This document shows positions 43,907-60,438 of a stretch of DNA of 64,000 bases, piece after piece. Position numbers and translations under genes: made by a program. Every line of letters starts with the position of its first letter. Position 1 is the stretch's first letter. The stretch comes from an uncultured archaeon (GTDB lineage: Archaea > Asgardarchaeota > Thorarchaeia > Thorarchaeales > Thorarchaeaceae), in assembly GCA_964558645.1 (NCBI GenBank), contig CAZLEV010000001.1, positions 221,568 through 285,567 of the forward strand. The letters are read 5' to 3'. Below the pieces are notes generated by a model, which was not told where the DNA came from, did not search any database, and saw only the letters and a list, made by a program, of their open reading frames with translations.

Positions 43907-43924
43907 GTACCGTCACATGACGGC
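43907..43924. promoter_or_regulatory. Palindromic operator, site 1
   Basis: GTACCGTCACATGACGGC; TTTTAT 8 nt after TGACGG; upstream of 44004. Confidence 0.75.
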
Positions 43925-44003
43925 TGATGACTTTTATCGGTGTTCTTTCAGTCCAGCATTGTCTGAATCTAGAACAACCTAGGTTCGAGCTGAGGAATTT
44001 ACA

Positions 44004-44210
44004 ATGAGTGAAAAGCAGCATAGAATTGACATTGCTTGGATCCTGGCAACTCTGGGACTTCTGGGAACTATCATGGTGGCCTTCGTGCATCTACTCACAC
44101 TTCAAGACCCTGTGAGTTCCATCGTGTACCAACTAGTGTGTGTGAGCTTCATTCTCTGTGGTATCTTCTTGGCTCTATACTCTCCTCCAACTGAGGAAGT
44201 GACAGTCTAG
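44004..44210 (+). CDS. Small 2-TM membrane protein
   Basis: 68 aa, two hydrophobic helices, GAGGA upstream. Confidence 0.7.
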   Translation: MSEKQHRIDIAWILATLGLLGTIMVAFVHLLTLQDPVSSIVYQLVCVSFILCGIFLALYSPPTEEVTV

Positions 44211-44557
44211 CGAGCCCACCAGCCTAGGGCAATCCGCTCACCTGATTGTTTCTGGATAGTGCAGTAGTCCCCTCTAGGCAATACGGTTGGGTTCTGCGTT
44301 GTCCTTCACTCAGCTATCTGAAAGATGTCCTGATCCAGATTGCGATGGTGCAATCTCGAGGTGTCTTCGGTCATAGCTAACTAGGTGAAGAACCATCAAC
44401 TATCATTCTCTCTAAGAGAATCATCATCGAGGAAAAGAGGTACTATCGTTGCGGGGAAGAGTTCTAACATGCACGAGGAGAGAAGCAGTATTTCCAGAGA
44501 GGACATCGGCCGCGTAGGGGTCTGCGCAATGACTCCGTTGGCGAGAGGAGGGGCGAC

Positions 44558-44575
44558 CAACAGTCACACGACGGC
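44558..44575. promoter_or_regulatory. Palindromic operator, site 2 (variant)
   Basis: CAACAGTCACACGACGGC upstream of the DUF3795 gene at 44636. Confidence 0.55.
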
Positions 44576-44635
44576 TGAAAGTAGAATAGTCCCCTTGCAC
44601 CTAGCATGTACTACTAACAAGGGAGATGGCACAAC

Positions 44636-44899
44636 ATGGATGAGAATCTACTTGCTCCGTGTGGACACTACTGTGGTTCCTGCGTAGTGTTCACAAAGGG
44701 AAAATGTCTGGGCTGTCGGGAAGAAGGAAAGAAGCGAGCTGCCGAGGGAATCGAGTTTTGTAAGATTCAGGAGTGTGCAACTCAACGGGGCGTTGCGTGT
44801 CACGAGTGTCCCGGCATGCCCTGTGACCGATATGGAGATTCGATATATAATAGCGGCTTCATCGATTGGATACGCGAGGAGCTTCAAAAGACCGCCTGA
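44636..44899 (+). CDS. DUF3795 family Cys-rich protein
   Basis: APCGHYCGSC.....CLGC...C.I..C......CHEC...PC. Confidence 0.85.
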   Translation: MDENLLAPCGHYCGSCVVFTKGKCLGCREEGKKRAAEGIEFCKIQECATQRGVACHECPGMPCDRYGDSIYNSGFIDWIREELQKTA

Positions 44900-44936
44900 C
44901 TCAGGCGATCTCATGATTGGGATCTACATAGCATAC

Positions 44937-45417
44937 CTAAGAGTGACCATGGCACATCTTGCCATTGAGGTGGTGCACAAAGTGGTCGCCCCTTCTCTTG
45001 AACCCTAGGCGGCGGTATAGAGTAGAAGTCGCATTTGCAGCCAGGAGGAAGACTTTGTCGACACCCATATTGGCGCACTCTTCCAAGACCTGACGAATCA
45101 TCTCGCTTGCGATCCCCTGTCTTCTCCGGTGGGGCTCTACAAACAGGTTGTGAAGGTATGCATCCACACCATTCGGCCCCTTGGGTCGTTGGTAGCGTAC
45201 ACATCGATGCAAGAGCACAGCCTCCCACCACTTCCTTCTCCTTGTATGCCAGAAAGCAAATGGGTCCATCATCCCAATTCTCTTCTAGGTGCTCCCTAAC
45301 CGATGCAGCCGTCAGCTCGAGTGAGTTACTATCCCATCCCATGGTTCGGAGCAGCTCGACTCGGTGGCGTACAATGAGTTCAACATGCGTGGGGTTAGCT
45401 CGAATCACTTGAATCAT
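44937..45417 (-). pseudogene. GNAT acetyltransferase with a +1 frameshift (paralogue of 55178-55657)
   Basis: N-half in ORF 44911-45417, C-half (PNGVDAYLHNLFVEPHRRRQGIA) in ORF 44937-45272; span 481 nt versus 480 nt in the paralogue; extra base near 45183. Confidence 0.85.
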
Positions 45418-45604
45418 GTATCTTCCACTCTCTTGCTATTCCTGCTAGGCTTGTGACAGAATGTACATGCCATGGTAATCATTCCCTCCGGGTGCCTCGA
45501 TGTTAGGTGCACCGAGGCCGGAAGAGATGTACGGAGTCTCCCTCACGCATCCGTTTGCCCTCGGAGATAGAGAGACCCTTTCAGTGGGTCACGAAATCAT
45601 GACC
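45418..45604 (-). ncRNA. Putative structured 5' leader, copy A
   Basis: Hairpins at 45587-45604 and 45494-45518 and a CTCTCTATCTC block, all shared with 55658-55847. Confidence 0.45.
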
Positions 45605-45640
45605 AGTGTCACATCCAGGGCGAAGGGTTCTTAGTGTCCT

Positions 45641-45658
45641 GCCGGCATGTGACTGTAT
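45641..45658. promoter_or_regulatory. Palindromic operator, site 3
   Basis: Minus strand ATACAGTCACATGCCGGC, then 8 nt, then TAAGAA; same layout as site 8. Confidence 0.65.
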
Positions 45659-45668
45659 CGGCCGGTCG

Positions 45669-45886
45669 TCAGATACAATACAGCGATGCCATGAGTTCGC
45701 TCAGTTCTGTTTCGAGTATCTCGTCTACTGGGGTGGCGGTTCCAAGCAGAAACAATGTGACCGGGGACAACTGGGTTTCGGTTCTCCGTGAGGGGATCTT
45801 GGCGAGCGCGATGCCGCTTCTCTACTTGATAGACCCCCAGGATAGGTGATTCAGCCACACCATCGGCACACATCATCCAACATCAT
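45669..45886 (-). pseudogene. Degraded HIT-family hydrolase remnant
   Basis: Across frames: MLDDVCRWCG*...NPVVPGHIVSAWNRH...VDEILETELSELM, resembling the HIT CxxC...NP..PGH.L..PKRH...EL.EL pattern. Confidence 0.4.
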
Positions 45887-46181
45887 GACCTAGTCTACAG
45901 TGTGCGTTCGCTTGAGAGTTCTCCCTCTCATCTCAAGACCCGCTGTATCTGATCACCTCTGTTCTCAGCACAACAGGCCACAGAGTGATACCGAGAGAAA
46001 CACAAGACCAACCCAGATGGCTGAAAGAGACGTGAGGTGAGCCATCGAGTGTCAAGGGGAAGGGGCTCAACACTCACATCAAAGGGAACATCCTCCCTAC
46101 GCCTCCAACCCGCCGTTCCCAGTACCGTACCGGCGTCCACGCATCAAATCTCAGCCCCTACTGGGAATTCGCTCTCGCCCC

Positions 46182-49100
46182 TCATAGGTTCCTCAGAATG
46201 AGACCAGGTTCTTCGAGCATCGCCTTTTGGGCAGCCAAGTAACAGATTACGACCATGACGAGAAACTCGATGAACAGGAAGGGAAGAATCGTAGCAAGAG
46301 GGAACGCAAGCGTGTATGCACGGAGCAGTTTGAACGGCGCAAGACCAAACGTCAGTACCGTCATGGCATAACCAAAAACGGATCCGATGATGATGCTTGT
46401 CGCAGCGGATGACATGATATTTCCTGCGAACTCTCCGAAGACTAGAGCCGTGATGTGTCTTCTTGTTCCTCCAAGTGCTCGAAAGGTAGCATACTCCATC
46501 TGTTTCTCATAGATTGCGGATGTCAGAAACAGGAGAATGCAGGCAAAGCTCAACGCCATTGCCATGTATACCATGACTTCACTCAGTCCCTGCAGGCCGG
46601 ACAGGAAAAGGGCCACCGATGGGGCAAGTTTCTCCCAGTCGAGGGTTTCGATTGAGCAGGCATCAACCCCGGGCAGGTTGTCGAGATAAGAAACAACTCT
46701 CGTGTGATTGGCGAAAGGTGCCAGTCTCACAAAGAAAAGATTTATGGACCTCTTGCTCACAATACTGGTAAGAAACTCTTGATTTACTAGCGCAAACCCC
46801 CCTCTTCCTACCTGGAACCCCAAGAGCGAAACGAATGCATCTACAGGGAGGTCCGCAGTTGCTGCCATACCTAGTCCTGGTGCACTCCTCATCACACCCA
46901 CAATTTGGAATTGGTGAGTGATGAGTTGACCCATTACGTCAAGACTGACATCGATATCCTCGCCAACACTCACATTCCAGGTGTCTGCGTAATGAGAGCT
47001 GACCACAATTCCGTTGCAAGTGTTAGAGAGCGCCGTAAGGACCTCCTCAGGAGAGGAATCAATGAAGTCGCTCTGTTGCACCTTCGCGATTGTGAGGAAC
47101 TCGTCTGGTACGATACCTTCGAGGAAGAATGAGTTGGAGCCAGCAGATGCTGCAACCTCAAAAATGGGAGTTGCCTGATAGACACCGGGAACAGCGAGCA
47201 GTGTCCTTTCGAACTCGAGTTCTCCCTGTTGAACTTGGACGCGAACATCCGCTCCTATCGCATGCTGCAATTCATATCTGATGTTCTGATCCAAACTTGC
47301 ACTCTGTACCAACACGATTGTCGCCGCACTGAGTGTTAGGTTTAAGATCGCCAACAGGGGAATGAGATGCCCTTTTCGTCTCCTGAGACTCCGACTCAGA
47401 TAGAGGCTCTTCTCTCCCAGGAGGAAGCTGATTCGCTCCAAGACGAGTGCAGCTGCGCAACGGATGACTTGAGCCGAATAATAAGCGGTGAGTAGCAGAG
47501 CTCCCGAAGTCACTGCCACGCCAGCTACAGCCATGACTCCTGCAGGAAGGAGCGCCGTCGGCAAGACTACTGCGATGGTGAGCAAGGTCACAAGAATCCC
47601 CAACTGGAGCTTGATATGGTGCTCTTCGGTCGCTCCGTGTTCGACGATTGTCATAGGTTGACCGATCTCGAAGACTGCCACGTTGCGAGAAACGTGGACA
47701 AGATAGGTCGTGGGAAGTACTAGCGATATCCCTCCTGCCAGCGCAAGTGAGAGCCATGGCACTGAGAGGTTGCTCCAGTAGATCAAATACTCGGTCGGAT
47801 TAAATGTCAAGAGGCCCATCCTGGAGTCGATGAGCGGTGCTAGGATTACGGAGAGCGCGATACCGACAATGAAGGTCAGTACGGATAGTATTGAGGCCTC
47901 GCACAGGAATGTGGCCAATATCTGATTATAGGAGGCCCCCTTGGCTCTCAGGGTGCTCACCTCTCTCTTCCGCCTGCGGACTGAGATGTCTGAAGTCAAG
48001 ACTGATAGCACTAGACTCATGACCAGCAAAGGGACTACCGCAACCGTGAGTATTCTACTCTGGGAGTAGGCTGCGATAATCCTATCGAGAAACATTGTCT
48101 CAGCGACTCCGAGAGCGTTAATGGTTGGATATTCTTCCTCAATGTAGGTCATGATGTTTCGGATGTTGGCACCCATACTCTCTACACCCGCCCGAAGAAG
48201 ACTCTGTTCTGAGGTCCGGATGAAGACTCTGGGCGGAAAGAAGCCTCTATCTCGTATCTCGTTGAGATTAGCCTCCCTCACTTGATCTTGTAGCATTATG
48301 ACTGCGTCGGTAAGGCCTAAGACTTCCACAGGTTCTTCGAAGGGGTCCCAATTCTTCCGATGGATTGAGGAGAACAGCCCGCTAAGCATGGAGCGTCGTT
48401 TTATATCGAAAATGCCCGCAACTCTCAAACCGTCTATGTCAAGCTTGCCGAGTTTCTCAGGAGTTTTTGACACCGCTGGATCTCCTCCAAATCTCAGAAG
48501 GTCAAAGCTCATCTCCATGCCTGTGCGGACCGGAATCCCGTACACCTCATTGAAGAAGGATGCGAACCCGTTGGAGACGAGGACCTCTCCCAGACTCAGG
48601 GAGAACTCGCCCTCCCAGATGAACTCTCTGGACCAATAGTCGAGAGATTTGCTGTCAACAAAGATGACCCGGGTGTCTTTGAGCCCTTGTGCATAGTTCA
48701 TGTCCATCACACGATAATGGTGCCAATCGGAATCTTGCGGCATCCTGACTATGCCGATTGTAGTAGGTGAGAGGTCGGTCGATTCCACGAATATGCTCTC
48801 TTCCGCAGCCTCCTGAGCCTGGAGAAGATGTTGGATGTTCAGCTCAGAACCTGATTCTCTCAGGGCAATCTGATAGCTGCTGTCCTGAAAATAGTCGTGG
48901 GATGCAAGAGTCATCCCTGTCGAAGTCCAGATGAAGACAGTCGTAGGAATGGCAAGGCTCAGGCTCAACACGAAGACTGTGGCAATACTCTGGAGCTTGT
49001 GGTCTTTCAGAGAAGACAGCGCGTGACTTGTTGGCCAAATCAGACCGGCAACAATCGTGCTTCTCTGGTCATTTCTCGGAGCCGGCATGACCCATCCCAC
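46182..49100 (-). CDS. Large FtsX/MacB-type ABC permease
   Basis: RRKREVSTLRAKGAS, IGADVRV, EYATFRALGG; 972 aa. Confidence 0.9.
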   Translation of the reverse strand: MGWVMPAPRNDQRSTIVAGLIWPTSHALSSLKDHKLQSIATVFVLSLSLAIPTTVFIWTSTGMTLASHDYFQDSSYQIALRESGSELNIQHLLQAQEAAEESIFVESTDLSPTTIGIVRMPQDSDWHHYRVMDMNYAQGLKDTRVIFVDSKSLDYWSREFIWEGEFSLSLGEVLVSNGFASFFNEVYGIPVRTGMEMSFDLLRFGGDPAVSKTPEKLGKLDIDGLRVAGIFDIKRRSMLSGLFSSIHRKNWDPFEEPVEVLGLTDAVIMLQDQVREANLNEIRDRGFFPPRVFIRTSEQSLLRAGVESMGANIRNIMTYIEEEYPTINALGVAETMFLDRIIAAYSQSRILTVAVVPLLVMSLVLSVLTSDISVRRRKREVSTLRAKGASYNQILATFLCEASILSVLTFIVGIALSVILAPLIDSRMGLLTFNPTEYLIYWSNLSVPWLSLALAGGISLVLPTTYLVHVSRNVAVFEIGQPMTIVEHGATEEHHIKLQLGILVTLLTIAVVLPTALLPAGVMAVAGVAVTSGALLLTAYYSAQVIRCAAALVLERISFLLGEKSLYLSRSLRRRKGHLIPLLAILNLTLSAATIVLVQSASLDQNIRYELQHAIGADVRVQVQQGELEFERTLLAVPGVYQATPIFEVAASAGSNSFFLEGIVPDEFLTIAKVQQSDFIDSSPEEVLTALSNTCNGIVVSSHYADTWNVSVGEDIDVSLDVMGQLITHQFQIVGVMRSAPGLGMAATADLPVDAFVSLLGFQVGRGGFALVNQEFLTSIVSKRSINLFFVRLAPFANHTRVVSYLDNLPGVDACSIETLDWEKLAPSVALFLSGLQGLSEVMVYMAMALSFACILLFLTSAIYEKQMEYATFRALGGTRRHITALVFGEFAGNIMSSAATSIIIGSVFGYAMTVLTFGLAPFKLLRAYTLAFPLATILPFLFIEFLVMVVICYLAAQKAMLEEPGLILRNL

Positions 49101-49370
49101 CCGTGTGTCTCCTCACATCTTCAGACTGAGACCACGGAAGCAGGTAAGAGCCTGTGCCTTCTGCGTCTTGATTTCTTCCGAGCGTTTCTGTATATGTCTG
49201 TGAGATTCAGGATAGTCACACGGCCGAGCGGGAAAGCAGTGTTCAACTGGACGTTGCCTGCATCTCTGTTTCACTGCTACTGGCGCCACATTGCAAGAAT
49301 CCCATCGATTGACTGTCTTCACCATCATCCATCAGCATGGACGAGCTCAGTGGGAATGATAGTAAACTTT

Positions 49371-49388
49371 GTACCGTCATATGACAGC
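49371..49388. promoter_or_regulatory. Palindromic operator, site 4
   Basis: GTACCGTCATATGACAGC, preceded by GTAAACTTT (minus strand AAAGTTTAC, BRE/TATA-like). Confidence 0.78.
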
Positions 49389-49476
49389 ATCCGGGTAAGC
49401 CGCAAACTCAACGCAATGTTTCTCAAGGAACACTTGGTCTCTGATGGCCCCCCTGAGCCAATTTGTATGGCTTGAC

Positions 49477-50180
49477 TCATGTTTCCAGTCGAGGAAAGGA
49501 CTCGATGATCCGACTGAGATTGATCTCCTCCCGTTTCGATTCGGGAGCCTTCCGGAAGAGCTCGAGATAAGGAACGATTGCAGCGATGAGCTTGTTCTCC
49601 GCCTTTCGGAGATGGTCTGAATGTCTGCCCTTCGTGGCATTTGATAGTATCCGTTCGTGTAGGCAGTGAGGAGCGCCTCAATCTGCTTGTCGGTGAGTTC
49701 AGAGAACAGAGCATCAGCGGTGAGGGTGAGGGAACTGGCTATGAATCCATCAAAGGGCACCTTCCTGAGGATCTCATACGTGATGTCTCGCTGATCTAGA
49801 AGACGCATAACCTCTCTTACGTCCGACTGCTTGAAAGCTATAAGCCGATAGTGTTCCCACCCCTCCATATAGACCACGGGGCTGATCTGAAGCAGATTAC
49901 AGGCGTCAAACAAGACGGTGACAGAGTTCTCAGCATTGCATTGGCAGTCCTGAATGATCGCGTGGATATTTCCACAATCCGAGAAATGTTCTATCGTTAC
50001 TCCGATTTCTGTCGCCGCCTTTAGGAGATGCTCGGTGTCCTCATCCTCCTTTGTCACGAACTCCATGATCTCATATTGCCGATTGCACCAGAGGAACATC
50101 TTGACGTCGGAGAAGTCCCGTGACAGATTGGCAAAAGGGCAGTCATGAGTCAGACGCAAGAGAATCTCGAACATCGTCAT
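49477..50180 (-). pseudogene. Bat/HTH_10-type transcription regulator with a 43-bp deletion in the HTH
   Basis: Colinear with 59638-60384 (747 nt) but 704 nt long; junction CATCTC at 49609-49614; original C-terminus (HLRKAENKL...FPRLET*) is in the shifted frame. Confidence 0.9.
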
Positions 50181-50188
50181 ATGACAGA
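50171..50188. promoter_or_regulatory. Operator site 5, overlapping the regulator start codon
   Basis: ACATCGTCATATGACAGA spans the ATG at 50180. Confidence 0.65.
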
Positions 50189-50216
50189 ATCTGTACTCAG
50201 CGCATATATGTCCTGA

Positions 50217-50234
50217 GTCGTCATGTGACGGTAC
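50217..50234. promoter_or_regulatory. Operator site 6, upstream of the regulator TATA box
   Basis: Minus strand GTACCGTCACATGACGAC, then 8 nt, then ATATAT; ATG about 25 nt further on. Confidence 0.78.
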
Positions 50235-50413
50235 CATACTCCGGTGGCCATTTCTTATGATGCCGTCCCAAGACTCGGACAGGTCCTCTGTGAGAGGGGG
50301 GACTGATGCTACTGTGCGGAGATGATACCTGCTCTGTGTCGACATTGATGAACACATCAGATCCCCCCTTCAGATGCGCGATACCGATTGGAGAAGAGAG
50401 TAGACCGGTAGGA

Positions 50414-50779
50414 CTAGTCAGCATCTCTCATCTCTCTCAGCAACTGAACCGCCTTAGCGTATTTCTCGGATTTTTGCGACCAAGATGTCAGATGGTCGCA
50501 CACGAAGTCATCGCACTCCGAGCAGTGACGCAGACCATGCTGGTCAACACAGCACTTCAATATGTGGCAGTCTGGGCTCCAGTGAATCTCACGGTCGCCC
50601 GGACAACCTCGGCAGTACATCTTCTTCTCCATAGCCTCTTTGACTCCCTCCTCCGGACCGATCCACTCCATACTCCGGTACCACTCAATCACTCTCTTGG
50701 CAGCCGATGTATCGGACGGCAAGAGTCGAATGTCACACTTCTCGCAGTCGATGCCGCAGGGCGCAATCATACTATCCAT
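50414..50779 (-). CDS. DUF3795 family Cys-rich protein
   Basis: APCGIDCEKC...CRGC.G....HWSPDC.I.KCC......HCSEC..F.C. Confidence 0.88.
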   Translation of the reverse strand: MDSMIAPCGIDCEKCDIRLLPSDTSAAKRVIEWYRSMEWIGPEEGVKEAMEKKMYCRGCPGDREIHWSPDCHILKCCVDQHGLRHCSECDDFVCDHLTSWSQKSEKYAKAVQLLREMRDAD

Positions 50780-50875
50780 GTCATATCACCTCCCACTCAA
50801 TCTGAAACTCAGAGCAGGAGAGTCTGCTCCAGTAAGTGGTCAGTTGACAGAGCTGTGCTATGTTCCGGACCTTCA

Positions 50876-51748
50876 TCAGCATCTATCACCACTATTCTCT
50901 TTTCTCAAGGTATTTCCCAGAGGTTGCAGAAGCTCCTCAAGAGAACCTAGTTCCAAATCGGGGATAATCACATCCCTGTAAGGTTCGTTTATGCTCCTAG
51001 TTGCAGGTCTCTCTATAAGTATCGACATGATTCCCGCGGCGTTTGCCCCAGCGATGTCGGTCTCAAGCAGGTTGCCAACCATCACCGTTTCATCGGGCGA
51101 GAACCCTGTCTTCTGGAGCAGTCTGCGGAAGGAGTCAGGAGATGGTTTACAGACCGTTGCAGCTCTGACACCGGCAGAGAACTCGATTGCTGCGACTAGA
51201 GCTCTGGGACCGATGGTGATCTCCTCATTTCCGAGGTATCTGGTCTGACAGATGGGTCGCTCATCTATATATAGAAGCCGAGCCCCATCTCTCACAAGTC
51301 GCACGGCAAAGGAGACCTCCTGAACCGTGAGCCCTCGATTCAGACCAACGATAACGAAGTCTGCTGGAGGGTTGACCACCACCTCTGCACCCTGAGCCAC
51401 AAGGTCCTCATGCATTGCACTCTCCCCAATTGCAAAACACCGTGCCCCGTCCTTCTCTGAGCTAATGTACTGCGCAGTCACTGACGAACCAGTGAAGACG
51501 AGATCTTGGGTAATCTTGAAGCCGGTCCTGTTCATCGCTTCCGTGATCTCTCGAACCGACATGAAGCATATGTTCGAATAGAGTGCGGTCGTCTTTCCGC
51601 ATGTCTGGAGAAGCCCATAGAGTGCAAGTGCGTCATCATAGAGCTCAGGACCGGTCAGGGATTTCCAGAGTGTTCCTCCTATGTCAAAGATCCAGAAATC
51701 CTTACGAACAGCACCGACCAATTCCCGGCAGATATCCGCCGTCTTCAT
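50876..51748 (-). CDS. HAD-IIA (NagD-like) hydrolase with degenerate catalytic motifs
   Basis: FDIGGTLW (DxD changed to DxG), KPS, MVGNLLETDI.GA (GD changed to GN). Confidence 0.85.
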   Translation of the reverse strand: MKTADICRELVGAVRKDFWIFDIGGTLWKSLTGPELYDDALALYGLLQTCGKTTALYSNICFMSVREITEAMNRTGFKITQDLVFTGSSVTAQYISSEKDGARCFAIGESAMHEDLVAQGAEVVVNPPADFVIVGLNRGLTVQEVSFAVRLVRDGARLLYIDERPICQTRYLGNEEITIGPRALVAAIEFSAGVRAATVCKPSPDSFRRLLQKTGFSPDETVMVGNLLETDIAGANAAGIMSILIERPATRSINEPYRDVIIPDLELGSLEELLQPLGNTLRKENSGDRC

Positions 51749-51850: not shown

Positions 51851-51868
51851 GTACCGGCAGACGCCGGT
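51851..51868. promoter_or_regulatory. Operator site 7 (variant)
   Basis: GTAAACTTT-GTACCGGCAGACGCCGGT; same 15-nt GTAAACTTTGTACCG flank as sites 4 and 9. Confidence 0.6.
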
Positions 51869-51948
51869 AGAAGAGAGAATAACACTATTAGCCATCGTTC
51901 TGCTGTTGAACCCTGCAAGACAAGGGGCTCATCCAGAATTCCAAATAG

Positions 51949-52956
51949 GTGACATCGAAGATGTTGAAGACCGTCCAAGGGCTACTGTGCTGTCCGGCCT
52001 GTCATGGGGACTTGGCATGGAGCATTGACGAGGAGATTCAAGAGCGAATGGTTCATACTGAGGTCAGGTGTACCGGGTGTTCACGGGCCTACGCTGTCAC
52101 AGATGAGGTAGGTGTCTTTCTACTGAATGAGACTTCTGATGACGATCTCTGGAAGGTTGTGGAGAGTGGCCTAGCACGGAGACTGAGGGAGAATCCGCAG
52201 TATGAGGAACAACTGATGAACAGTGATTTCTCTTCACTCAATGCAGCGGACAAGCTTTTACATACTACAATCCTCGATGAACGAGGCATGTATGACCTTG
52301 CGAGGGCTAGACGGAAGACTGCTGTAGAAGAGTTGTACCCCTCCCCTTACCGTGAGCAATACAAAGCAAAGAAGGGGCAGCTCCTGACGCTTCTGGCTGA
52401 AGAGAATGCCGTGATAGTAGATCTTGCCTCGGGCATGGCGGGTCTGGCGGAAGCATTTGCTGGGCTCGAAAGCCCCGTTGTCTTCAGTGATATCAGCCCG
52501 AGTGTCCTCTTCAGGAACCAGAAACGACTACGACACTTCGGGCTCTACGACAAGACCAGTCTCTTGGCATTTGATGTCCAAAGGATGCCCTTCCGTGATA
52601 GCTCCATACCTGTCTTCACTTCCAATATCGGTCTCACAAACATACGAGACAGCAAGGGCTTTGTTCAGGAACTCTCGCGCTGCCTGAGAGGAAGGGCATA
52701 CTTCATCACTTTCTTCTTTCCTGACAACGGAGATAGAAACGCTCAGTTGCTGGAGCAGCTAGACATGGAGCTTGCATTTGAAGACAGACTGCAGAAGATT
52801 GCAGAGCGCCATCTGGAGGTCGAGATTCTGTATCGAGCCAGCTCAGAAATAAAGCCCACTGTGCAGAGTGAGATATTCGGTGTCGGGATTGACGCCCTCC
52901 CCGTGGAGCCAACAACGGTGACATGGGCAATAGTCAAGATGGACCCCTACCAGTAG
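51949..52956 (+). CDS. Trm112-like Zn-ribbon + class I SAM methyltransferase-fold protein
   Basis: LCCPACHG.L...CTGC...Y.V; VDLASGMAG, SDIS, DV..MPF.D. Confidence 0.75.
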   Translation: MTSKMLKTVQGLLCCPACHGDLAWSIDEEIQERMVHTEVRCTGCSRAYAVTDEVGVFLLNETSDDDLWKVVESGLARRLRENPQYEEQLMNSDFSSLNAADKLLHTTILDERGMYDLARARRKTAVEELYPSPYREQYKAKKGQLLTLLAEENAVIVDLASGMAGLAEAFAGLESPVVFSDISPSVLFRNQKRLRHFGLYDKTSLLAFDVQRMPFRDSSIPVFTSNIGLTNIRDSKGFVQELSRCLRGRAYFITFFFPDNGDRNAQLLEQLDMELAFEDRLQKIAERHLEVEILYRASSEIKPTVQSEIFGVGIDALPVEPTTVTWAIVKMDPYQ

Positions 52957-53296
52957 GCTCTTCTCTTTCTCCGACAGAGTCGTCCGTTCCAGAGGTGCAT
53001 GCTCCGGAGCGGATTACGGTAAGATATCCCCGCAGCTGATTGGCATATCCGAATATCCCCCTACTGAGCTTGTCGGCAATGCAATCGATGTCTGAATTCC
53101 GAACGCGCAGGACAAAGACAGATTCGAAACCGCGAAGAACTCATTGCTTGCTGGCGTGGGAAGGGATTTGGGATTTGAGCCAGAAGCCTGGAACAGAGCG
53201 AGCAAGGGGAAAAGCACGGATAGAACTGGTTCTCTTGGACCAATCTCCTCAGGCAATGGCTCAGCTCCGGCGACACGTTCAGAGCCAAGACCTCTC

Positions 53297-54142
53297 CTAG
53301 ATGAGGCGGTCAGTACCGTTCGCTCCCTCGCAACCACTACGGTCCAACTCGTGGCAGAGTCTGAAGGCTGTGACAGCGGTCTCTGTAGTCAGCAGGTTGC
53401 CCCAAGAATCACGGCAACTGAGGAGTCTGAGCAAGACATCCAGCCCGCGCTGGATAACATCATGACCTCCGGGAAGGCCTGCGGCTAGCATCGAATCCAG
53501 CAACCATGTTAGTGGTCGGACGCCAAGGGTGGGTAGCCAGCCAAGGGTCTTTTCCCTGCAGTACTGGATCGTATCCTCATCGATTTCTGCTCGGTCGGGG
53601 TACAGAGACAACAGACTCCATGTGTTATACCATGTTGCGCTCACGAGCTCTCGGTCATGCCACCGCTTGCTCAACCAATCTACCGCGGCGTTGATTAGGG
53701 GTTGGTCTCCGTGACCCAGGGATACCAGTCTCATGGGCACTGCTGCGGTGAAGTAGAACCTGTCGATTTCACTGTCAGACTGTAGCCATTCCTGCGGTGA
53801 GTGTTCCAGTTTCCGGGGAATCTCATAGAATGACCCGTCCGCATCCTGGATAGACCGGAGGAAGGTCACAGTCGTTTCCGTGACCATCGTGTCCTCAAGC
53901 CCGAACTCCCTTAACCATCGCATACAGTGGATGGTACCACCCAGCGAGCCCGTACGGGACTCTTCTTCCTCTGCGTTGGAGTAGTCCCAGCTCCCATTAT
54001 CGAACTGGTATCCCGAGAGAACCTCTGTTGCTCTATTCTTGCTCACCCTGCCCTGTAGGACCCTCTCTAGGCGAATAAGGTCAAGCCGGTTACCACTCTC
54101 TCGGATGTAGTCCAGTATCCCTCTCAGTCGCCTCTTCGACAT
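53297..54142 (-). CDS. Prenyltransferase/squalene-cyclase-repeat (alpha-alpha toroid) protein
   Basis: QW-like repeats YQFDNGSW and IQDADGSF. Confidence 0.7.
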   Translation of the reverse strand: MSKRRLRGILDYIRESGNRLDLIRLERVLQGRVSKNRATEVLSGYQFDNGSWDYSNAEEEESRTGSLGGTIHCMRWLREFGLEDTMVTETTVTFLRSIQDADGSFYEIPRKLEHSPQEWLQSDSEIDRFYFTAAVPMRLVSLGHGDQPLINAAVDWLSKRWHDRELVSATWYNTWSLLSLYPDRAEIDEDTIQYCREKTLGWLPTLGVRPLTWLLDSMLAAGLPGGHDVIQRGLDVLLRLLSCRDSWGNLLTTETAVTAFRLCHELDRSGCEGANGTDRLI

Positions 54143-54148
54143 GACCTC

Positions 54149-55111
54149 CTATCTCCCATCTCGTTTCTCTCTCAGTTCGACGAGCCTCTCTGCCAGAGTG
54201 CGGATATCGCCAAGATCATTCGCATCATGAACCAGGCGAACCCACCCATGTGGGAGCGTCGAGGGATTGTAGCATGCGGAGAGGCCAGCAGCCATTGAAC
54301 CAACACAATCTGCATCACCCCCGAGACCGGCTGCGCAGATTGCGGCCTGCTCGGCGTGACGGTGGCTGATGAATATGGCCATAGCAGCGCTCACCCCCTC
54401 CCACGCAGTGAAACCCGGATTGAGTCCGAACTTGCGCAACTCCTCTATGTCTGAGCCTTGGGTCACTGTCTGACGAACCCATTCTAGCCGTCGCGACACA
54501 CGGGGACAGTAATCCTCCTCACCAATTTTCGAGTACTCAGAGTGCTGTGCTGCCCTGATGGATGCCTGCAGGATATCTTCAGGTTCTAGGTCTTCAAGCG
54601 CTGCTGAGAAGGCAGCAGCCATCGCACTGGATGCTGCCACGGCACTGCGAGAGTTGTGACTACATCTCACCAGGAGCTCGGCGTCCTTCACAAGTCTATC
54701 GATATGCCGTATGGTGTTGATGATGCCTGCTCCGGCAATCCTGATAGGCGCGCCATTGCCGATACGTGTCATGCGCACTCCCTGCTGAGCGGCTACGACC
54801 AGTCTGCTCCAACTTGGCCATCCCTTCACCTCTTCTGAACAGAGGCTGTTGATCAGATGACTCTCGTCCACGCCTTCTCGTTCAACTATGGATCTCGCAA
54901 CAATGAGTGTCAGCCTTGTGTCATCTGTGACCTCCGCTCTCTTCCAAGAATATCGAGAATTCGGCTGGATCGGCTCTCTGAACTCCTGAATAGGGTCACC
55001 ATATCGGGTGGTAATCTCCGGTGGCCAGAATCCCTCGGTCATCTTTCCGAAGGCATCACCCACTGCTATCCCATTCAGTAGTGCCTCTGTCTTGTCAATT
55101 TGCGCCCTCAT
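54149..55111 (-). CDS. ADP-ribosylglycohydrolase (DraG/ARH family)
   Basis: G.AVGDAFG..TEG, TDDT, GNGA..R, SH, GGDAD..GSMA. Confidence 0.9.
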   Translation of the reverse strand: MRAQIDKTEALLNGIAVGDAFGKMTEGFWPPEITTRYGDPIQEFREPIQPNSRYSWKRAEVTDDTRLTLIVARSIVEREGVDESHLINSLCSEEVKGWPSWSRLVVAAQQGVRMTRIGNGAPIRIAGAGIINTIRHIDRLVKDAELLVRCSHNSRSAVAASSAMAAAFSAALEDLEPEDILQASIRAAQHSEYSKIGEEDYCPRVSRRLEWVRQTVTQGSDIEELRKFGLNPGFTAWEGVSAAMAIFISHRHAEQAAICAAGLGGDADCVGSMAAGLSACYNPSTLPHGWVRLVHDANDLGDIRTLAERLVELREKRDGR

Positions 55112-55177
55112 GCAGTATCACCTTCGCGTGAGTTCTCTGACCTCTTCCAACATCAATGTTTTGACCCTGAATGGGAC

Positions 55178-55657
55178 TCAGGTACAGTCATACGATGAAC
55201 CGTCTGCTAGATGGTGGATGTAGTAGTCGGGTCTTCTAAGAAAGCCCTGTCGCTCGTAGAGGGTGGACTCGGGATTTGCAGCGAGGAGGGTCACCTTGTC
55301 AATCCCCATGCTGCGAGCTTCTTCCAGTACATGACTGAGCAAGAAGCTCGCAATCCCCCGCCCTCTCCAGTGAGGTTCCACGAACATGTTGTGGAGATAC
55401 GCATCCAGACCATTGGGATTCCGACTGGTGGGCAGAGTGTGCATCAATCCAAGAGCACATCCTCCGACCACATGTCCGCCGTTGTGCGCGAGATAGCAGA
55501 TGAGTGCGTTTTCCCAGTTCTTCTTCAGGTAGTCCCTCACAAATCCAGCCGTCAGCTCAAGCGACATATCATCCCATCCCATTGTTCGGAGCATCTCAAC
55601 CCGATGACGGACAACGAGTTCAGTGTGTTCAGGACCGGATCGAATCACATAGACCAT
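55178..55657 (-). CDS. GNAT N-acetyltransferase
   Basis: YLHNMFVEPHWRGRGIAS, LYERQGF. Confidence 0.9.
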   Translation of the reverse strand: MVYVIRSGPEHTELVVRHRVEMLRTMGWDDMSLELTAGFVRDYLKKNWENALICYLAHNGGHVVGGCALGLMHTLPTSRNPNGLDAYLHNMFVEPHWRGRGIASFLLSHVLEEARSMGIDKVTLLAANPESTLYERQGFLRRPDYYIHHLADGSSYDCT

Positions 55658-55847
55658 AGTTCACATCTTCCTACAGATTTTGCAGGGGTTTCGTTGTTCG
55701 TGCTGAGTGGAAGTCTCCGAGTCCTCGGGGTGCCCCGGCAGCACTTTTGCCGAGGCACAAAGAAGTACTCGCAGTTCTTCCAGAGGGTGACTCTGTCCCA
55801 GGAGAGATAGAGAGTGTGCGTCTCATCGGTTCACCATATCGTGACCG
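55658..55847 (-). ncRNA. Putative structured 5' leader, copy B
   Basis: Hairpins at 55827-55847 and 55730-55758 and a CTCTCTATCTC block; stem covaries with copy A. Confidence 0.45.
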
Positions 55848-55880
55848 GCCTTGCTATGAGGTTTAGGACTTCTTAGTGTA

Positions 55881-55899
55881 GTGCCGTCACATGACGGCA
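55881..55899. promoter_or_regulatory. Operator site 8 (perfect 8-bp arms), between divergent genes
   Basis: TGCCGTCA-CA-TGACGGCA. Confidence 0.8.
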
Positions 55900-55984
55900 G
55901 AAGCAAGAAACGAGTCTTCGTATATCGAGATCCGAAGACCTGCGAAGTCTTCGTACTGGCATATCGATACTTCGCAAGCAGGAG

Positions 55985-56740
55985 ATGGAGACAAGAAGAA
56001 TGACACACTGCAAGAGTGACTGTGAAAGAGTGGAAGGGCTTCTAGCTGGCTGGAGTCTGTTGGTAACAGCAGGGCCGACTAGAGGATGGGTAGACAGGAT
56101 ACGTTTCCTCACTACACCGTCTACGGGGAAGATGGGGCTGGCTGTGGCACAGTGCGCCCGTGACCTAGGGGCAGAGGTAGCGTTGGTCATAGGACCCAAC
56201 AACCTGCCGGCTCCCGAGGGCATTGAGGTGTACGACGTGGAAACACCTGACGAGATGAAAGGGATGGTCATGAGTCTGCTTCGAAAGAAGATGATTCATG
56301 GGCTGGTCGCTGCAGCGTCCGTACTTGACTATGTTCCTGAGCATGTGGAGAATCGCAGGATTCCCTCGGGTGCAAGAGAGTTTGCAGTCAGGTTTAGGCC
56401 CACTGCAAAGGTCATCAATGAGGCAAGGTTGAGACACAAGGACCTGTACATCGTTGCCTTCAAGACGGAATGGGCCCTAGATGACAGCGAGCTTCACATG
56501 TCAGCCAGGGAATTGATGGACTCGGGAGTGGCCAACGTGGTCGTAGCCAATGATGCAGCAAGAAAGGGGGCTGGGTTTGGCTGGGACACTAACCAAGTCT
56601 TGATTACGGGACCAGGCGAATCATCTGAGATTCTCCCCCTCATGTCGAAGGAAGACGTATCTTATCATCTGCTCAATCGCATCGCAAGGGACATCAGTGA
56701 CTGGTGCCAAGAGAGACGCATAGGCGGTCCGCATCGATGA
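55985..56740 (+). CDS. coaB: Stand-alone phosphopantothenate-cysteine ligase-like (CoaB/DFP domain) protein
   Basis: LVTAGPT...D..RF....STGKMG.A.A, AASV.DY, AFK.E, VVAND...GF..DTN; no CoaC domain. Confidence 0.8.
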   Translation: METRRMTHCKSDCERVEGLLAGWSLLVTAGPTRGWVDRIRFLTTPSTGKMGLAVAQCARDLGAEVALVIGPNNLPAPEGIEVYDVETPDEMKGMVMSLLRKKMIHGLVAAASVLDYVPEHVENRRIPSGAREFAVRFRPTAKVINEARLRHKDLYIVAFKTEWALDDSELHMSARELMDSGVANVVVANDAARKGAGFGWDTNQVLITGPGESSEILPLMSKEDVSYHLLNRIARDISDWCQERRIGGPHR

Positions 56741-57750
56741 AGACCATGACGGTTGAGAACAAGCGTTTTAGCTGGGGTCGAGTGGAGAGCAAAGAGGAGT
56801 TTCAGGACTTCGTTCGCGGGCTGGAGCTGCAACCACCTTTCATTGTCAAACCGAACTGGATATGCGAGGACTATGGGCATTTCACCGACCCGCTGGTACT
56901 TGAATGGGTCTTGGAGGCGCTTCATCCCGATGGAGAGCTTGTGGTGACAGAGGCCTATTCAGCCAGAAACATGCTTGTCTGCGGGGCACCCAATACGGTG
57001 AGGTTCAATGAGCAACAACTTGAGATGGTCAGGGAGTCTGAACAGGGCTTCATGGATCGAACGGGTATTGGGGACATTCTTCAAAGGCTGGATGTTGAGT
57101 ATGTGAACGTTGCCGAGGAGATGCTCGCCGGTCGGGCTGTTGAGCCATCGATTGTACGCCAAAGAGTCGTAGACTTCTATGGAGAAGTGGCGAGAGAGGA
57201 GTTCTACACCTTCATCCCTACGAAGCTCTATGCTCTGAGAGAGGGAACTTTCATCAATCTGGCCAAGTTCAAGATCTTCTTCAGTATGTGCACAAAGAAC
57301 GTCTTTGGGATGATTCCCGAGTATGTGGGATATGGCTCCCGTTATGTCTACCATGGGGAGAAGGATATACATCTCTCAGAGAACATTGTAGACATCAACC
57401 GGGTCTATCGTGCACTCTTCAACGTTGTAGGAATCGTAGAAGGGGTTAGAACCTTGAGCTGCGAGCCCGGGAAGGGCACTGCCACTCACTCTTCCAAGTT
57501 CGGCTACGACTATGATGTCATGGAGGACTGCGAGCTCGTCTACTATGGCGACGATCCTCTATGGCTTGATGCTTTCATCCATCAACAATGTGGAAGAGAC
57601 CCCGTCAAGACAGACCATCTTGGGCGCGCACTGCATTTCTTCGAACCATGGCCAGAGAGAGTCCTATCAAGAGCGATAGAGGAAGGAAACCCCCTCCTCA
57701 GATGCTCGGAAGATGAAGAGACAGGTTCTCGTGAATGGGCACCTCTCTGA
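56737..57750 (+). CDS. DUF362-like protein
   Basis: IVKPNW, TDP..L..V, INLAKFK...CTKN.FG.IP; ATGA overlap with coaB. Confidence 0.7.
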   Translation: MKTMTVENKRFSWGRVESKEEFQDFVRGLELQPPFIVKPNWICEDYGHFTDPLVLEWVLEALHPDGELVVTEAYSARNMLVCGAPNTVRFNEQQLEMVRESEQGFMDRTGIGDILQRLDVEYVNVAEEMLAGRAVEPSIVRQRVVDFYGEVAREEFYTFIPTKLYALREGTFINLAKFKIFFSMCTKNVFGMIPEYVGYGSRYVYHGEKDIHLSENIVDINRVYRALFNVVGIVEGVRTLSCEPGKGTATHSSKFGYDYDVMEDCELVYYGDDPLWLDAFIHQQCGRDPVKTDHLGRALHFFEPWPERVLSRAIEEGNPLLRCSEDEETGSREWAPL

Positions 57751-57856
57751 TCCAGGAGAACTGGGTAGTGGGTGTTGCCTATCCCGTGGTCAGAGGAAAT
57801 GACACTCATGTTCTGCCGGCCCTCGTAGACATCAGGCATCGCGGGGTACCGGTAGC

Positions 57857-58894
57857 TCAGTGGTGGGATGGCCGCTCTCTCATCCGAATGGCTTCGGAGG
57901 GACAGACCGATGCGCACAGGCCGCATCCATAGCAGAGATCTGCCGGAGCATGGGCAAGTCCGCTCCTGAGTATCATGCACCCGAATGGGCAGGACTCAAT
58001 ACAGACACCGCACCCGATGCACAGATCATGATCAACGGATGCGAGATACCCTGAAGGCTTGATACAACCTCTCATGCCGAATCTTAGGAGGGCCTGGAAC
58101 TCATGGCAACAACACGCACAGCAGCTGCAGATGGCGTTTGCTTTCTGCTGAGTTGAAAACAGTGTCATGGTGACAAGGCCTTTTCCGTTTCCCATGTTCA
58201 TCACATCCAACGCGTCGCTGATGGTCAGAGGCCTCGCCTGACCGCGGGACAGATGATACTGCGCAACCTCATCGAGGAGGATGCAGGTATCCAGAGGCCC
58301 TTCGCATTGCCCAGACAGCTTCCGGCATGTGCATTCCGTGAGTGCTATCTTCTCCGCCTGTTCCAATACACGTCTCCGCATGTCATGGTCCAAGACCTGT
58401 CTCTGAACCGGAAGTGTCTTCTGTACCGGAATCACCTCAGACGAGTGCTCCAGCCTACCTTTCTTCATTCTTGACGCAATTGTCATCACATAATACCTGT
58501 TGTAGTACTGCCTCAACTTCTCACGCTGCCCCGCATCTAAGTGATCCAGCCGGCCCTCCTTGAGCTGTGTCTTGACTATCTCAGGGAGAGGCCTCATCAT
58601 ATAGCGTGTCTTCGTGTCTGTTGTGGACCGTGAGATGAAGCCTGTCAGGTACAGTCTACCGACCCGCTCACGGACTCTATCAGGAACATCACCGCCGAGG
58701 ACGTGATTCATCTCATCTACAGTGCGAGGTGTTCGGGCAATCGAGGCAAGAATTCGTAGCTCGTCCGATGAGAGAAGATGGTTCAGCGTACGCTGTAGTA
58801 TGACCGATACGGCTGGTGTTCGAAGGGGGAGTTCGGGAGACCGTTCTTCTTTCAGTTCCACCATCACCTGCTGTGACTCTGCAGACGATTCCAC
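57857..58894 (-). CDS. Winged-helix + Cys-rich + 2x[4Fe-4S] ferredoxin-domain protein
   Basis: C.CR......C..PLDTC, ICSCCACCC, CIGCGVCIESCP, CYGCGLCASVCP; GGAGGAGG upstream. Confidence 0.88.
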   Translation of the reverse strand: MESSAESQQVMVELKEERSPELPLRTPAVSVILQRTLNHLLSSDELRILASIARTPRTVDEMNHVLGGDVPDRVRERVGRLYLTGFISRSTTDTKTRYMMRPLPEIVKTQLKEGRLDHLDAGQREKLRQYYNRYYVMTIASRMKKGRLEHSSEVIPVQKTLPVQRQVLDHDMRRRVLEQAEKIALTECTCRKLSGQCEGPLDTCILLDEVAQYHLSRGQARPLTISDALDVMNMGNGKGLVTMTLFSTQQKANAICSCCACCCHEFQALLRFGMRGCIKPSGYLASVDHDLCIGCGVCIESCPFGCMILRSGLAHAPADLCYGCGLCASVCPSEAIRMRERPSHH

Positions 58895-59144
58895 TCAGAG
58901 GCCTCCTCCGCGCCGGTCCGCGGGTGATTCTTTCCGGAGTCTACGAGCCGTACTTTCCGGTCATGACTGATTCGGATTGGCCTGTGCCAATTCATCGGGT
59001 CATTCGTGGGAGGATGCCCCTCATCGTCGTATCTGCATGTCTTGTTGGGTCCGGGAGCAGTCCTGCAAGAGGCCCTACCTATCCTGACTGTTCGGACCGT
59101 TCTTGACCTTCATAGAACATGGTTCGATCTCTCTAGTAAACTTT

Positions 59145-59162
59145 GTACCGACAGGTGACAGC
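59145..59162. promoter_or_regulatory. Operator site 9
   Basis: GTAAACTTT-GTACCGACAGGTGACAGC. Confidence 0.68.
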
Positions 59163-59255
59163 AGCGGGTCAAGAGGAGGAGTAGAAGATGCACTCAGGAG
59201 AGCGATGAGAGGTGTGTTCGCACTCATCTGGCCTGGAGTGGAGGAGGGGCACCGT

Positions 59256-59453
59256 CTAGCGTCGCCACAAGGCAAGGACCCTCGCCTTGTGCTTCTCAAG
59301 CTCTTTCAGATGCTCCTCACTTACTCGGTGAAAATCGGGGTAGTCCCGTGAACAATCAGCGGGGACTTGCTTCTCGTTCTCAGGGGTGATTTCCTCCTCA
59401 TCTGCTTCATTCGCTTCACATGGGCCCCTGCGTTTCTTGACTAGTCGTGTCAT
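59256..59453 (-). CDS. Small hypothetical protein
   Basis: 65-aa charged ORF beginning about 45 nt downstream of operator site 10 and its TATA-like box. Confidence 0.55.
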   Translation of the reverse strand: MTRLVKKRRGPCEANEADEEEITPENEKQVPADCSRDYPDFHRVSEEHLKELEKHKARVLALWRR

Positions 59454-59498
59454 GTTGGGTCTTCACGACATCACCCACTGGAAATCGTCGTAAGTCTT

Positions 59499-59518
59499 GC
59501 ACCGGCATGTGACAGTAC
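59499..59518. promoter_or_regulatory. Operator site 10
   Basis: GTAAGTCTT-GCACCGGCATGTGACAGTAC. Confidence 0.68.
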
Positions 59519-59637
59519 TATCCCGGTTATAGAGGAGAGAACTTGGAGATTGAGGGGTGCTCAAGGTCATGAGGACTGTTGACTCAATCTGGGCCATATG
59601 AAACAGATCTGTCAGAGGAAGAGAATCTCACTTCTTT

Positions 59638-60384
59638 TCAGGCCTCGAGTCGAGGAAAGGACTCGATGACCCGACTGAGATTGATCTCCTCTCGCTTCGA
59701 TTCGGGGGCCTTTCTGAAGAGTTCTAGATAGGGAACGAGGGCTGCAACGAGCTTGTTCTCAGCCTTTCTGAGATGCTCCTGGAATGTCGTTCGAACTACA
59801 TCAGCTTTCCTAGATATGGTCCGAACATCTGCCCCGCGCGGTATCTGATAATACCCGTTGGTATAGGCTGTGAGGAGAGCGTCGATCTGCTTGTCTGTAA
59901 GATCAGAAAAGAGGGCATCAGCTGTGAGAGTCAGAGAGCTTGCTATGAATCCGTCAAAGGGCACCTTTCGAAGTATCTCTGACTCAATCCCGCGCTTGTC
60001 CAACAGCCGCATCATCTCAGAGAAGTGGCTCTGTTTGAATGCCACCAGACGGTAGTGTTCCCATCCCTCCATGTACACAACGGGACTGATCTGAAGGAGG
60101 TTGCAGGAGTCAAAGAGGACGCTGACCGAGTTATCTTCAGTGCACTGGCAGTCCTTGGTGACTGCGTGTATGTTTCCACAGTCAGAGAAATGCTCCACAG
60201 TTGTGCCAATCGAAGCTGCGGCCTCAAGAAGTCCATCGATGTCCTCATAACCGTGAGTCACGAACTCCATGATCTCATGGTGGCGGTTACACCAGAGAAA
60301 CATCTTCACGTCGGGAAAGCGCCGCGAGAGATTCGCGAATGGGCAATCGTGTGTGAGCCTCAGCAGAATCTCAAACATCGTCAT
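59638..60384 (-). CDS. Bat/HTH_10-type transcription regulator (intact)
   Basis: C-terminal LTDKQ..AL..AY..GYY..PR......I......RTTFQEHLRKAE.KL; N-terminal HDCPF, WCN and CQC residues. Confidence 0.92.
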   Translation of the reverse strand: MTMFEILLRLTHDCPFANLSRRFPDVKMFLWCNRHHEIMEFVTHGYEDIDGLLEAAASIGTTVEHFSDCGNIHAVTKDCQCTEDNSVSVLFDSCNLLQISPVVYMEGWEHYRLVAFKQSHFSEMMRLLDKRGIESEILRKVPFDGFIASSLTLTADALFSDLTDKQIDALLTAYTNGYYQIPRGADVRTISRKADVVRTTFQEHLRKAENKLVAALVPYLELFRKAPESKREEINLSRVIESFPRLEA

Positions 60385-60392
60385 ATGACAAT
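60375..60392. promoter_or_regulatory. Operator site 11, overlapping the regulator start codon
   Basis: ACATCGTCATATGACAAT spans the ATG at 60384. Confidence 0.65.
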
Positions 60393-60420
60393 ACTAGCGT
60401 TCTGTCCATATATGCTCTGA

Positions 60421-60438
60421 GCCGTCACGTGACAGCAC
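60421..60438. promoter_or_regulatory. Operator site 12, upstream of the regulator TATA box
   Basis: GCCGTCACGTGACAGCAC; on the minus strand TGACGG, 8 nt, ATATAT. Confidence 0.78.

Follow-up and report, generated by a model that had tools for sequence, protein, structure and literature searches.

Characterised archaeal activators bind upstream of the transcription factor B recognition element (BRE) and the TATA box, and Tar (TK0271) of Thermococcus kodakarensis has the motif TGGACA-N8-TGTCCA (PMC6737238). Haloarchaeal proteins with a DNA-binding domain of the HTH_10 family that are described as activators include NarO of Haloferax volcanii, to which repression of dms is also ascribed, and DmsR (PMC11218638, PMC10062603). 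Here, we investigated a 64-kb window (the whole stretch analysed, C1:221568-285567 of a 3.63-Mb Asgard, Thorarchaeia-type assembly in 37 contigs), in which palindromes with the consensus TACCG-N-CA-YR-TG-N-CGGTA are gathered in a 16.5-kb island together with the gene for an HTH_10 protein (59638-60384). The palindrome is very probably the binding site of this factor, judging from the same palindrome-to-TATA distance at the factor's own gene in about 45 other loci of Asgard and Bathyarchaeia genomes. The sequencing runs listed as containing the stretch were two DNA runs, both from marine sediment, with no RNA run among them, and the island sequence was recovered without any difference in contigs of the second run, which came from a separate study.

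The system would be of a known kind, namely a local factor that controls its own gene through a palindromic operator. As with Ptr2 of Methanocaldococcus jannaschii and Tar, the palindrome lies directly upstream of BRE/TATA at several promoters of one regulon; unlike them, the factor belongs to the HVO_A0563_N plus HTH_10 family and has another motif, a fixed 8-nt TATA spacing and an extra site on the regulator's own start, and activation by it is predicted only from position. With NarO and DmsR, compared by description only, it shares a C-terminal HTH_10 domain, the lack of PAS and GAF domains and an association with accessory metabolic gene clusters, whereas their hosts are haloarchaea and the carriers of the present factor are non-halophilic Asgard and Bathyarchaeia. 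The motif also differs from the semi-palindrome CGAAYATDKTYG reported for denitrification promoters of Haloferax mediterranei. The N-terminal domain matches that of HVO_A0563 of Haloferax volcanii, the namesake of PF24280. In the literature searched, we found no paper on HVO_A0563, on this palindromic operator or on an Asgard or Bathyarchaeia regulon of such a kind, no described operator or function for the PF24280 family, and no Asgard or Bathyarchaeia sequence-specific transcription factor with a described binding site. The notable features are conservation in two phyla, exact TATA spacing and local expansion to about 18 sites.

We investigated homologues of the regulator in other genomes. 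Pattern-based retrieval gave 18 loci with 41–58% identity, mostly from Bathyarchaeia metagenome-assembled genomes and one from Ca. Atabeyarchaeum deiterrae, whose genome is of the same phylum as that of the window, which is thereby assigned to Asgardarchaeota; further homologues occurred in other Asgard genomes (40–58% identity overall), and the family was present in 55 of the 301 Asgard genomes sampled, from six taxonomic families. All 16 retrieved loci with upstream DNA contained one or two CCGTCAYRTGACGG-type palindromes at most about 100 nt from the regulator ATG, and most of the further Asgard loci likewise had a palindrome before the regulator. The motif, first proposed in an earlier reading of the window from its letters (the sequence-only reading), is thus conserved upstream of homologues of the HTH_10 protein in two phyla. 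CCGNCA-YR-TGNCGG was present before the homologue in about 45 loci. Among the approximately 47 loci with a recognisable site that were tabulated, nearly all showed the proximal 14-mer, then exactly 8 nt, and then ATATAT, ATAAAT, ATAAGT or ATATGT (ATAWRT); a site directly upstream of BRE/TATA was found at nearly all of them as well as at the island sites. In most Asgard loci the site was centred 43–44 nt ahead of the ATG, a distance that implies leaderless mRNAs; in the main Bathyarchaeia clade and one Asgard family, the distance was 55–56 nt. Across homologues, the regulator's operator was conserved in the regulator's own promoter, as in an autoregulated local factor. The layout in Ca. Atabeyarchaeum was that of the window: a first site was upstream of the TATA box, a second spanned the ATG, and a third lay before a DUF3795 gene just downstream.

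The operator changed together with the recognition helix. Helix RTTFQEHL was paired with CCGTCA..TGACGG, and helix RTTFLEHL, with a Gln-to-Leu change, with CCGACA..TGTCGG. The recognition helix RTTFQEHLKKAENK was invariant in all homologues using CCGTCA..TGACGG, and a clade of the window's own taxonomic family (support 100/100) combined helix RTTFLEHLKKAENK with CCGACA..TGTCGG at the same position without exception. Two further variants, RSTFQEHLRKAEKK with CCGGCATATGCTTG and RTTLQEHL with CCGTCATATGCCGG, pointed in the same direction. The exact 14-mer CCGACAYRTGTCGG occurred in 5 of 61 related genomes, once in each and 37–51 nt before the Leu-type regulator gene; that is, in five of the six Leu-type carriers (the sixth had one mismatch) and in none of the 55 genomes without a Leu-type regulator. 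Unlike this 14-mer, the strict 12-mer CGTCAYRTGACG gave counts in the 61 relatives that failed to distinguish carriers from other genomes; some matches arise by chance, and GACA is the variant used in the commonest clade.

Within the 64-kb window, YGTCANNTGACR (YGTCA-NN-TGACR) had eight exact matches against 0.40 expected (100 shuffles, largest count 3). Seven 12-bp matches fell at 43.9–60.4 kb (43911, 49375, 50175, 50219, 55885, 60379 and 60423), and the eighth, at 9269 (TGTCAAGTGACA), had a low score. The sites at 44558, 45641 and 59499 were two mismatches away from CGTCACATGACG, and those at 51851 and 59145 retained mainly the outer CCG/CGG arms. Scores were obtained with a 20-column matrix built solely from sites beside homologous regulators in other genomes. 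Since about 31 matches scoring at least 12 are expected by chance in 3.6 Mb, and about 0.14 in 16.5 kb, the sites at 45639, 59499 and 44558 are locally significant. The 12 operators listed in the sequence-only reading therefore comprise seven exact and five degenerate copies, two of which (51851 and 59145) are weak. All 12 are intergenic or on a start codon once gene starts are corrected, as had been proposed, and the first 43 kb indeed contain no strong copy, except for a one-mismatch copy at 41324-41335. The TATA-like box noticed after the right arm belongs to a real and strictly conserved operator–spacer–TATA geometry: at all 12 sites, a TATA-like 8-mer follows from 9 nt past the 12-bp core (8 nt past the 14-mer) in at least one orientation. 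Several sites had identical flanks (GTACAAAGTTTAC). The sites, with their matrix scores, were as follows.

Candidate 13th site: 41320-41339 (core 41324-41335, CGTCATGTCACG, one mismatch), plus strand; upstream of a histidine kinase gene (41456-43471).
Site 1: 43907-43926, plus strand; followed by TTTTATCG (43932-43939); score 25.6.
Site 2: 44558-44577, plus strand; degenerate, upstream of a DUF3795 gene (44636-44899); score 13.7.
Site 3: 45639-45658, minus strand; followed by TAAGAACC, about 225 nt upstream of a GNAT-like open reading frame (ORF; 44911-45417); score 15.7.
Site 4: 49371-49390, minus strand; followed by GTACAAAGT-TTACTATC, upstream of ORF 49113-49328 and an FtsX permease gene; score 24.2.
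Sites 5 and 6: 50171-50234, with CATATATG between them; promoter of a broken regulator copy; scores 18.1 (50171) and 24.3 (50215).
Site 7: 51851-51870; weak (GTACCGGCAGACGCCGGTAG), between a HAD gene (minus strand) and a methyltransferase gene (plus strand); score below 12.
Site 8: 55881-55900, GTGCCGTCACATGACGGCAG; between a GNAT-ADP-ribosylglycohydrolase (ARH) operon (minus strand) and a CoaB-like/DUF362 pair (plus strand); score 26.5, the best in the genome.
Site 9: 59145-59164, minus strand; weak, upstream of an Fe-S protein gene (57857-58894); score below 12.
Site 10: 59499-59518, minus strand; CCGGCA half-site, upstream of a 65-aa ORF (59256-59453); score 15.4.
Site 11: 60375-60394; across the regulator ATG and its predicted leaderless transcription start; score 18.8.
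Site 12: 60419-60438, GAGCCGTCACGTGACAGCAC; regulator promoter, 8 nt from ATATAT (60408-60413, minus strand), with ATAAATGA on the plus strand ahead of a GNAT gene at 60483; score 21.6.

Site 12 is centred 44 nt ahead of the regulator ATG, the distance also seen in the homologues. The candidate 13th site lies 6–7 nt before a consensus TTTATATC box and is possibly due to chance, because this spacing departs from the 8-nt rule. Sites 4, 7 and 9 have a common GTACAAAGT-TTAC flank, and site 3 aligns with site 8 and its leader.

Genome-wide, the strict pattern occurred 25 times, and 10 of these matches, with identical flanking bases, lay in the island and at C4:65.9-70.0 kb. Matrix scores of at least 18 were reached by 12 matches, compared with 1–4 in five genomes simulated with a Markov-1 model, and scores of at least 20 by 8 compared with 0–1; the window island ranked first in the 3.63-Mb genome. 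Of the 12 matches, seven fell in the window island, three in a second island, on contig C4, and two on C17; the C17 match at C17:31599 (score 18.3) was taken as chance because it is inside a coding sequence. The C4 island (C4:64600-74900, L019:4600-14900) is compact, shares 70–74% DNA identity with the window island and adds six sites, so the regulon is not confined to one island as originally supposed. It encodes DUF3795, CoaB-like, DUF362 and Fe-S proteins, a small ORF, a regulator, GNAT, a phosphoribosyltransferase-domain protein, a 214-aa protein, HAD and methyltransferase. Its regulator, the third copy in the genome, is intact and 80% identical, and its phosphoribosyltransferase-domain gene is missing from the window island and adjoins the regulator in Ca. 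Atabeyarchaeum.

Individual sites of the window have counterparts on C4. Site 2 and its gene have a paralogous site and gene there, in addition to the Ca. Atabeyarchaeum site before the DUF3795 gene adjoining the regulator; the position paralogous to site 7 has a better site (73723, score 16.7); site 8 is kept in the paralogous promoter; the layout of site 10 is mirrored by a site at 69151 followed by a 70-aa paralogue; and the ATG-spanning arrangement of site 11 recurs in the C4 paralogue and in Ca. Atabeyarchaeum (L003). In the paralogous promoters, which are about 72% identical between the window and C4, the palindromes and CATATATG were kept, whereas the DNA between and beyond them had diverged.

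Two observations concern the rest of the genome. An isolated intergenic site, ATGCTGTCAGATGACGGTAC, with a score of 17.8 (C2:340049, L021:4050-4069), is found about 70 nt ahead of a metallo-beta-lactamase-fold gene and may be a further regulon member outside the islands. A distant HTH_10 paralogue (C23:24569-25210, L020), with 28% identity in its C-terminal half, is preceded by a related palindrome, CACCCGTCACAGGACGGCAT, which is separated by about 16 nt from the predicted start.

The intact regulator of the window (248 aa), whose start codon is inside site 11, matched HVO_A0563_N (PF24280) at residues 6-140 with 65.3 bits (gathering cut-off 27; E 7e-18) and HTH_10 (PF04967) at residues 162-213 with 61.8 bits (cut-off 23.1; E 5e-17). 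An hmmscan search to E 10 returned these two domains only, with no GAF, PAS or BAT domain; the protein has the HTH_10 DNA-binding domain in common with Bat of Halobacterium but, contrary to the Bat/HTH_10 label of the sequence-only reading, is not a Bat orthologue, because those three domains were not detected. Nor does the window hold several working regulators. Copy 1 (49477-50180) is a pseudogene: alignment with the two intact copies revealed a 43-bp frameshifting deletion at the start of the recognition helix, and its tblastn match was split at residues 193/194; both of its operators remain intact, as does its TATA box. Only three cysteines were invariant in the homologue alignment, C32 (in WCN) and C79-x-C81, together with other residues that include Ser67-Asp68, Gly107-Trp108 and Arg112; the cysteine of HDCPF is clade-specific. 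A metal, Fe-S or thiol-based signal through the invariant cysteines is plausible, and binding would probably depend on metal, an Fe-S cluster or redox state. A sequence search of PDB found no relative. The best fold match, to Ta1207 (5m86; E 1e-5, TM 0.39), was too weak for naming the fold. A homodimer complex prediction scored 0.38 against a mark of 0.42.

From the motif, its enrichment, conservation, co-variation with the factor and geometry, we infer that the factor encoded at 59638-60384 binds the palindrome, probably as a dimer, of which the dyad symmetry of the site is the sole indication, and controls its own gene and neighbouring genes, the sites centred 44 nt upstream (−44 sites) being most likely activating; taken as a whole, we regard this explanation as probable. 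Most genomes would have one to three sites at the factor's own locus, and in the present genome the unit of operator, 8 nt (the BRE position) and TATA box would have been copied so as to precede about 18 transcription units, spread over two paralogous accessory islands. With its centre about 44 nt upstream of the start and lying against the BRE, a site would most likely aid the binding of TFB and TBP, with the greatest effect at the poor TATA boxes of the targets. Regulator promoters have a good box, ATATATG, and target boxes are TTTTATCG, TTACTATC, TTACATCG, TTACTAGA, TTACGACG, TAAGAACC, TAAGAAGT or ATAAATGA; most of these (e.g., TTACTATC, TAAGAAGT and TTACGACG) are poor because they are unlike the promoter-enriched hexamers of the genome (TTTATA, TTATAT, TTTTAT and TATAAG). 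We lean toward activation by the −44 sites because they abut the BRE upstream of TATA, and activation fits the poor target boxes. The additional site across the regulator's own start codon, seen in the window, on C4 and in Ca. Atabeyarchaeum, most likely gives negative feedback.

The same factor and operator could also work as a repressor that covers the BRE and keeps TFB out until a change in ligand or redox state de-represses the island. We consider this alternative rather unlikely. The 20-bp extended motif overlaps the BRE position, ending about 4–5 nt short of the TATA box, and the regulator's own promoters have the site despite their good TATA boxes. Furthermore, most genomes have a single perfect site, located at the promoter of the regulator itself, which is the usual layout of an autorepressor, and the start-codon-spanning site is repressive by position. 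However, spacing exact to the base pair across two phyla is unnecessary for simple occlusion, the target TATA boxes are poor for this genome, and next to a −44 site that was itself repressive, a second, clearly repressive +1 site would be superfluous.

Binding of the palindromes by a different protein, with their position beside the HTH_10 gene being coincidental or indirect, appears very improbable. Other HTH_10 proteins do occur in the genome, such as that on C23 next to its similar palindrome, but the motif accompanies the regulator gene across Bathyarchaeia and several families of Asgard archaea, varies along with the recognition helix and, among the genomes searched, is present only in carriers. 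That the copies are non-regulatory leftovers of segmental duplication, mobile-element ends or restriction-modification targets is hardly credible: the islands are paralogous, several sites have identical flanks and a multicopy repeat borders the island at 61535-62486, but sites are kept where the flanking DNA has diverged, their spacing to the TATA box is fixed, they occur only at the regulator promoter in unrelated genomes and they do not pair as terminal inverted repeats around any unit, and their retention in diverged paralogous promoters together with cross-phylum conservation excludes mere duplication remnants.

Several points weigh against control of the island by an activating HTH_10 factor. 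The co-variation is essentially one evolutionary event in one clade; with related genomes and a single helix/operator change, it amounts to circumstantial evidence that is strong but falls short of proof. Duplication links many of the island sites, which hence are not independent, and sites 51851 and 59145, with scores in the noise, are supported by context alone. Target genes are not conserved between lineages, which makes the motif uninformative on function: when 27 island proteins were compared with the 18 homologous loci by tblastn, the regulator alone was matched, and by Pfam only DUF3795 and the phosphoribosyltransferase-domain protein recurred near homologues. Elsewhere, sites precede genes for Fpg glycosylase and aldo-keto reductase (one Bathyarchaeia locus), DUF3795 (Atabeyarchaeum) or a conserved ORF of about 80 aa (main Bathyarchaeia clade). 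In addition, the AlphaFold2 model was poor, with a mean predicted local distance difference test score of 62 and an HTH part below 50. The sign of regulation is read from position, and a BRE-abutting site might just as well block TFB. Factors that act locally commonly repress their own genes. Accordingly, of the proposal that the HTH_10 protein activates the island, what stood was its link to the palindromes through conservation, joint change with the helix and carrier-only occurrence among the genomes searched, and activation is a prediction from site position.

The candidate targets named at the outset (DUF3795, the GNATs, the ARH operon, CoaB-like/DUF362, the Fe-S protein, HAD, the methyltransferase and the permease) all lie downstream of sites. 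The genes of the island and its borders were as follows.

41456-43471, plus strand: PAS-GAF histidine kinase (Pfam), bordering the island.
44636-44899, plus strand: DUF3795 protein (Pfam E 1e-7).
44911-45417, minus strand: GNAT-like ORF.
46182-49100, minus strand: FtsX/MacB-type permease (Pfam FtsX), preceded by a 71-aa ORF (49113-49328).
49477-50180, minus strand: regulator copy 1, broken paralogue with HVO_A0563_N and HTH_10.
Between regulator copy 1 and the HAD-IIA hydrolase: 214-aa protein of no assigned family.
50876-51748, minus strand: HAD-IIA hydrolase.
51949-52956, plus strand: Trm112-like/S-adenosylmethionine methyltransferase.
53297-54142, minus strand: 281-aa protein of no assigned family, in the putative operon 53297-55657.
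54149-55111, minus strand: ARH (Pfam), same putative operon.
55178-55657, minus strand: GNAT (Pfam), same putative operon, which is downstream of site 8.
55985-57750, plus strand: CoaB-like ligase (DFP C-terminal domain) and DUF362 protein (Pfam), with a paralogous pair in C4.
57857-58894, minus strand: Fe-S protein with two 4Fe-4S motifs (Pfam Fer4).
59256-59453, minus strand: 65-aa ORF.
59638-60384, minus strand: regulator copy 2, intact, with HVO_A0563_N and HTH_10.
60483-61376, plus strand: GNAT acetyltransferase (Pfam), divergent from the regulator, with a paralogue in C4.

Because a CoaB-fold ligase, two or three GNATs, a HAD phosphatase, a methyltransferase, an ADP-ribosylglycohydrolase, Fe-S proteins and a permease are encoded, the gene content suggests small-molecule modification, synthesis or detoxification. 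NCBIfam matches for the target enzymes, including the CoaB-like/DUF362 pair, were all under the curated cut-offs. The island is accessory, since 8 of the 36 genomes from the window's taxonomic family had the regulator family and it was not found in either of the two genomes from the window's genus (95% and 87% complete). We claim no donor of the island, as the tree was unresolved on the branching of the window's regulator. The right border, 61535-62486, is multicopy in the genome, with matches of 74–97% on C6, C8, C13 (three), C24 (two) and C26; the copies are often at contig ends, and the ORFs within the region lacked Pfam matches. The border may consist of a repeat or mobile element.

Small ORFs and leaders also recur at these sites. 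The ORFs 49113-49328, 59256-59453 and, on C4, L019:8894-9106 are paralogous proteins of 65–71 aa with a DYPxxHR motif and a C-terminal helix, each directly downstream of a palindrome site and without a Pfam match. In the main Bathyarchaeia clade, the ORF of about 80 aa is divergent from the regulator, is served by the distal palindrome and likewise had no Pfam match (L016:5628-5876, L017:5628-5876, L018:5629-5877, L008, L012, L013 and L015); no homology between it and the small island ORFs is claimed (hhalign probability 4%). The leaders of about 220 nt before the GNAT paralogues, 55658-55880 (site 8) and 45418-45640 (site 3), have common conserved blocks that include the inverted repeats CCTCGG...CCGAGG and GGTCACGATATCGTGACC and are also present in the C4 island (L019:5700-5890). 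These may be structured leader RNAs.

We tentatively propose that the factor may represent a class of sensor-activators, so far uncharacterised, that is common to Asgard archaea and Bathyarchaeia, is cysteine-based (metal, Fe-S or redox) and would contact the basal machinery from a site placed to the base pair, and that the operator–BRE–TATA cassette may have been spread by duplication before about 18 unrelated accessory genes, turning a one-gene circuit into a two-island regulon. The comparison defines a factor–operator pair, with a 14-bp site, a predicted specificity residue (Gln or Leu) matched to T or A at one operator position and a fixed 8-nt spacing to the TATA box, and supplies the Pfam family PF24280, itself uncharacterised, with a first cis-element. 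It also offers a handle on how regulators address TBP and TFB in the lineage of archaea most closely related to eukaryotes.

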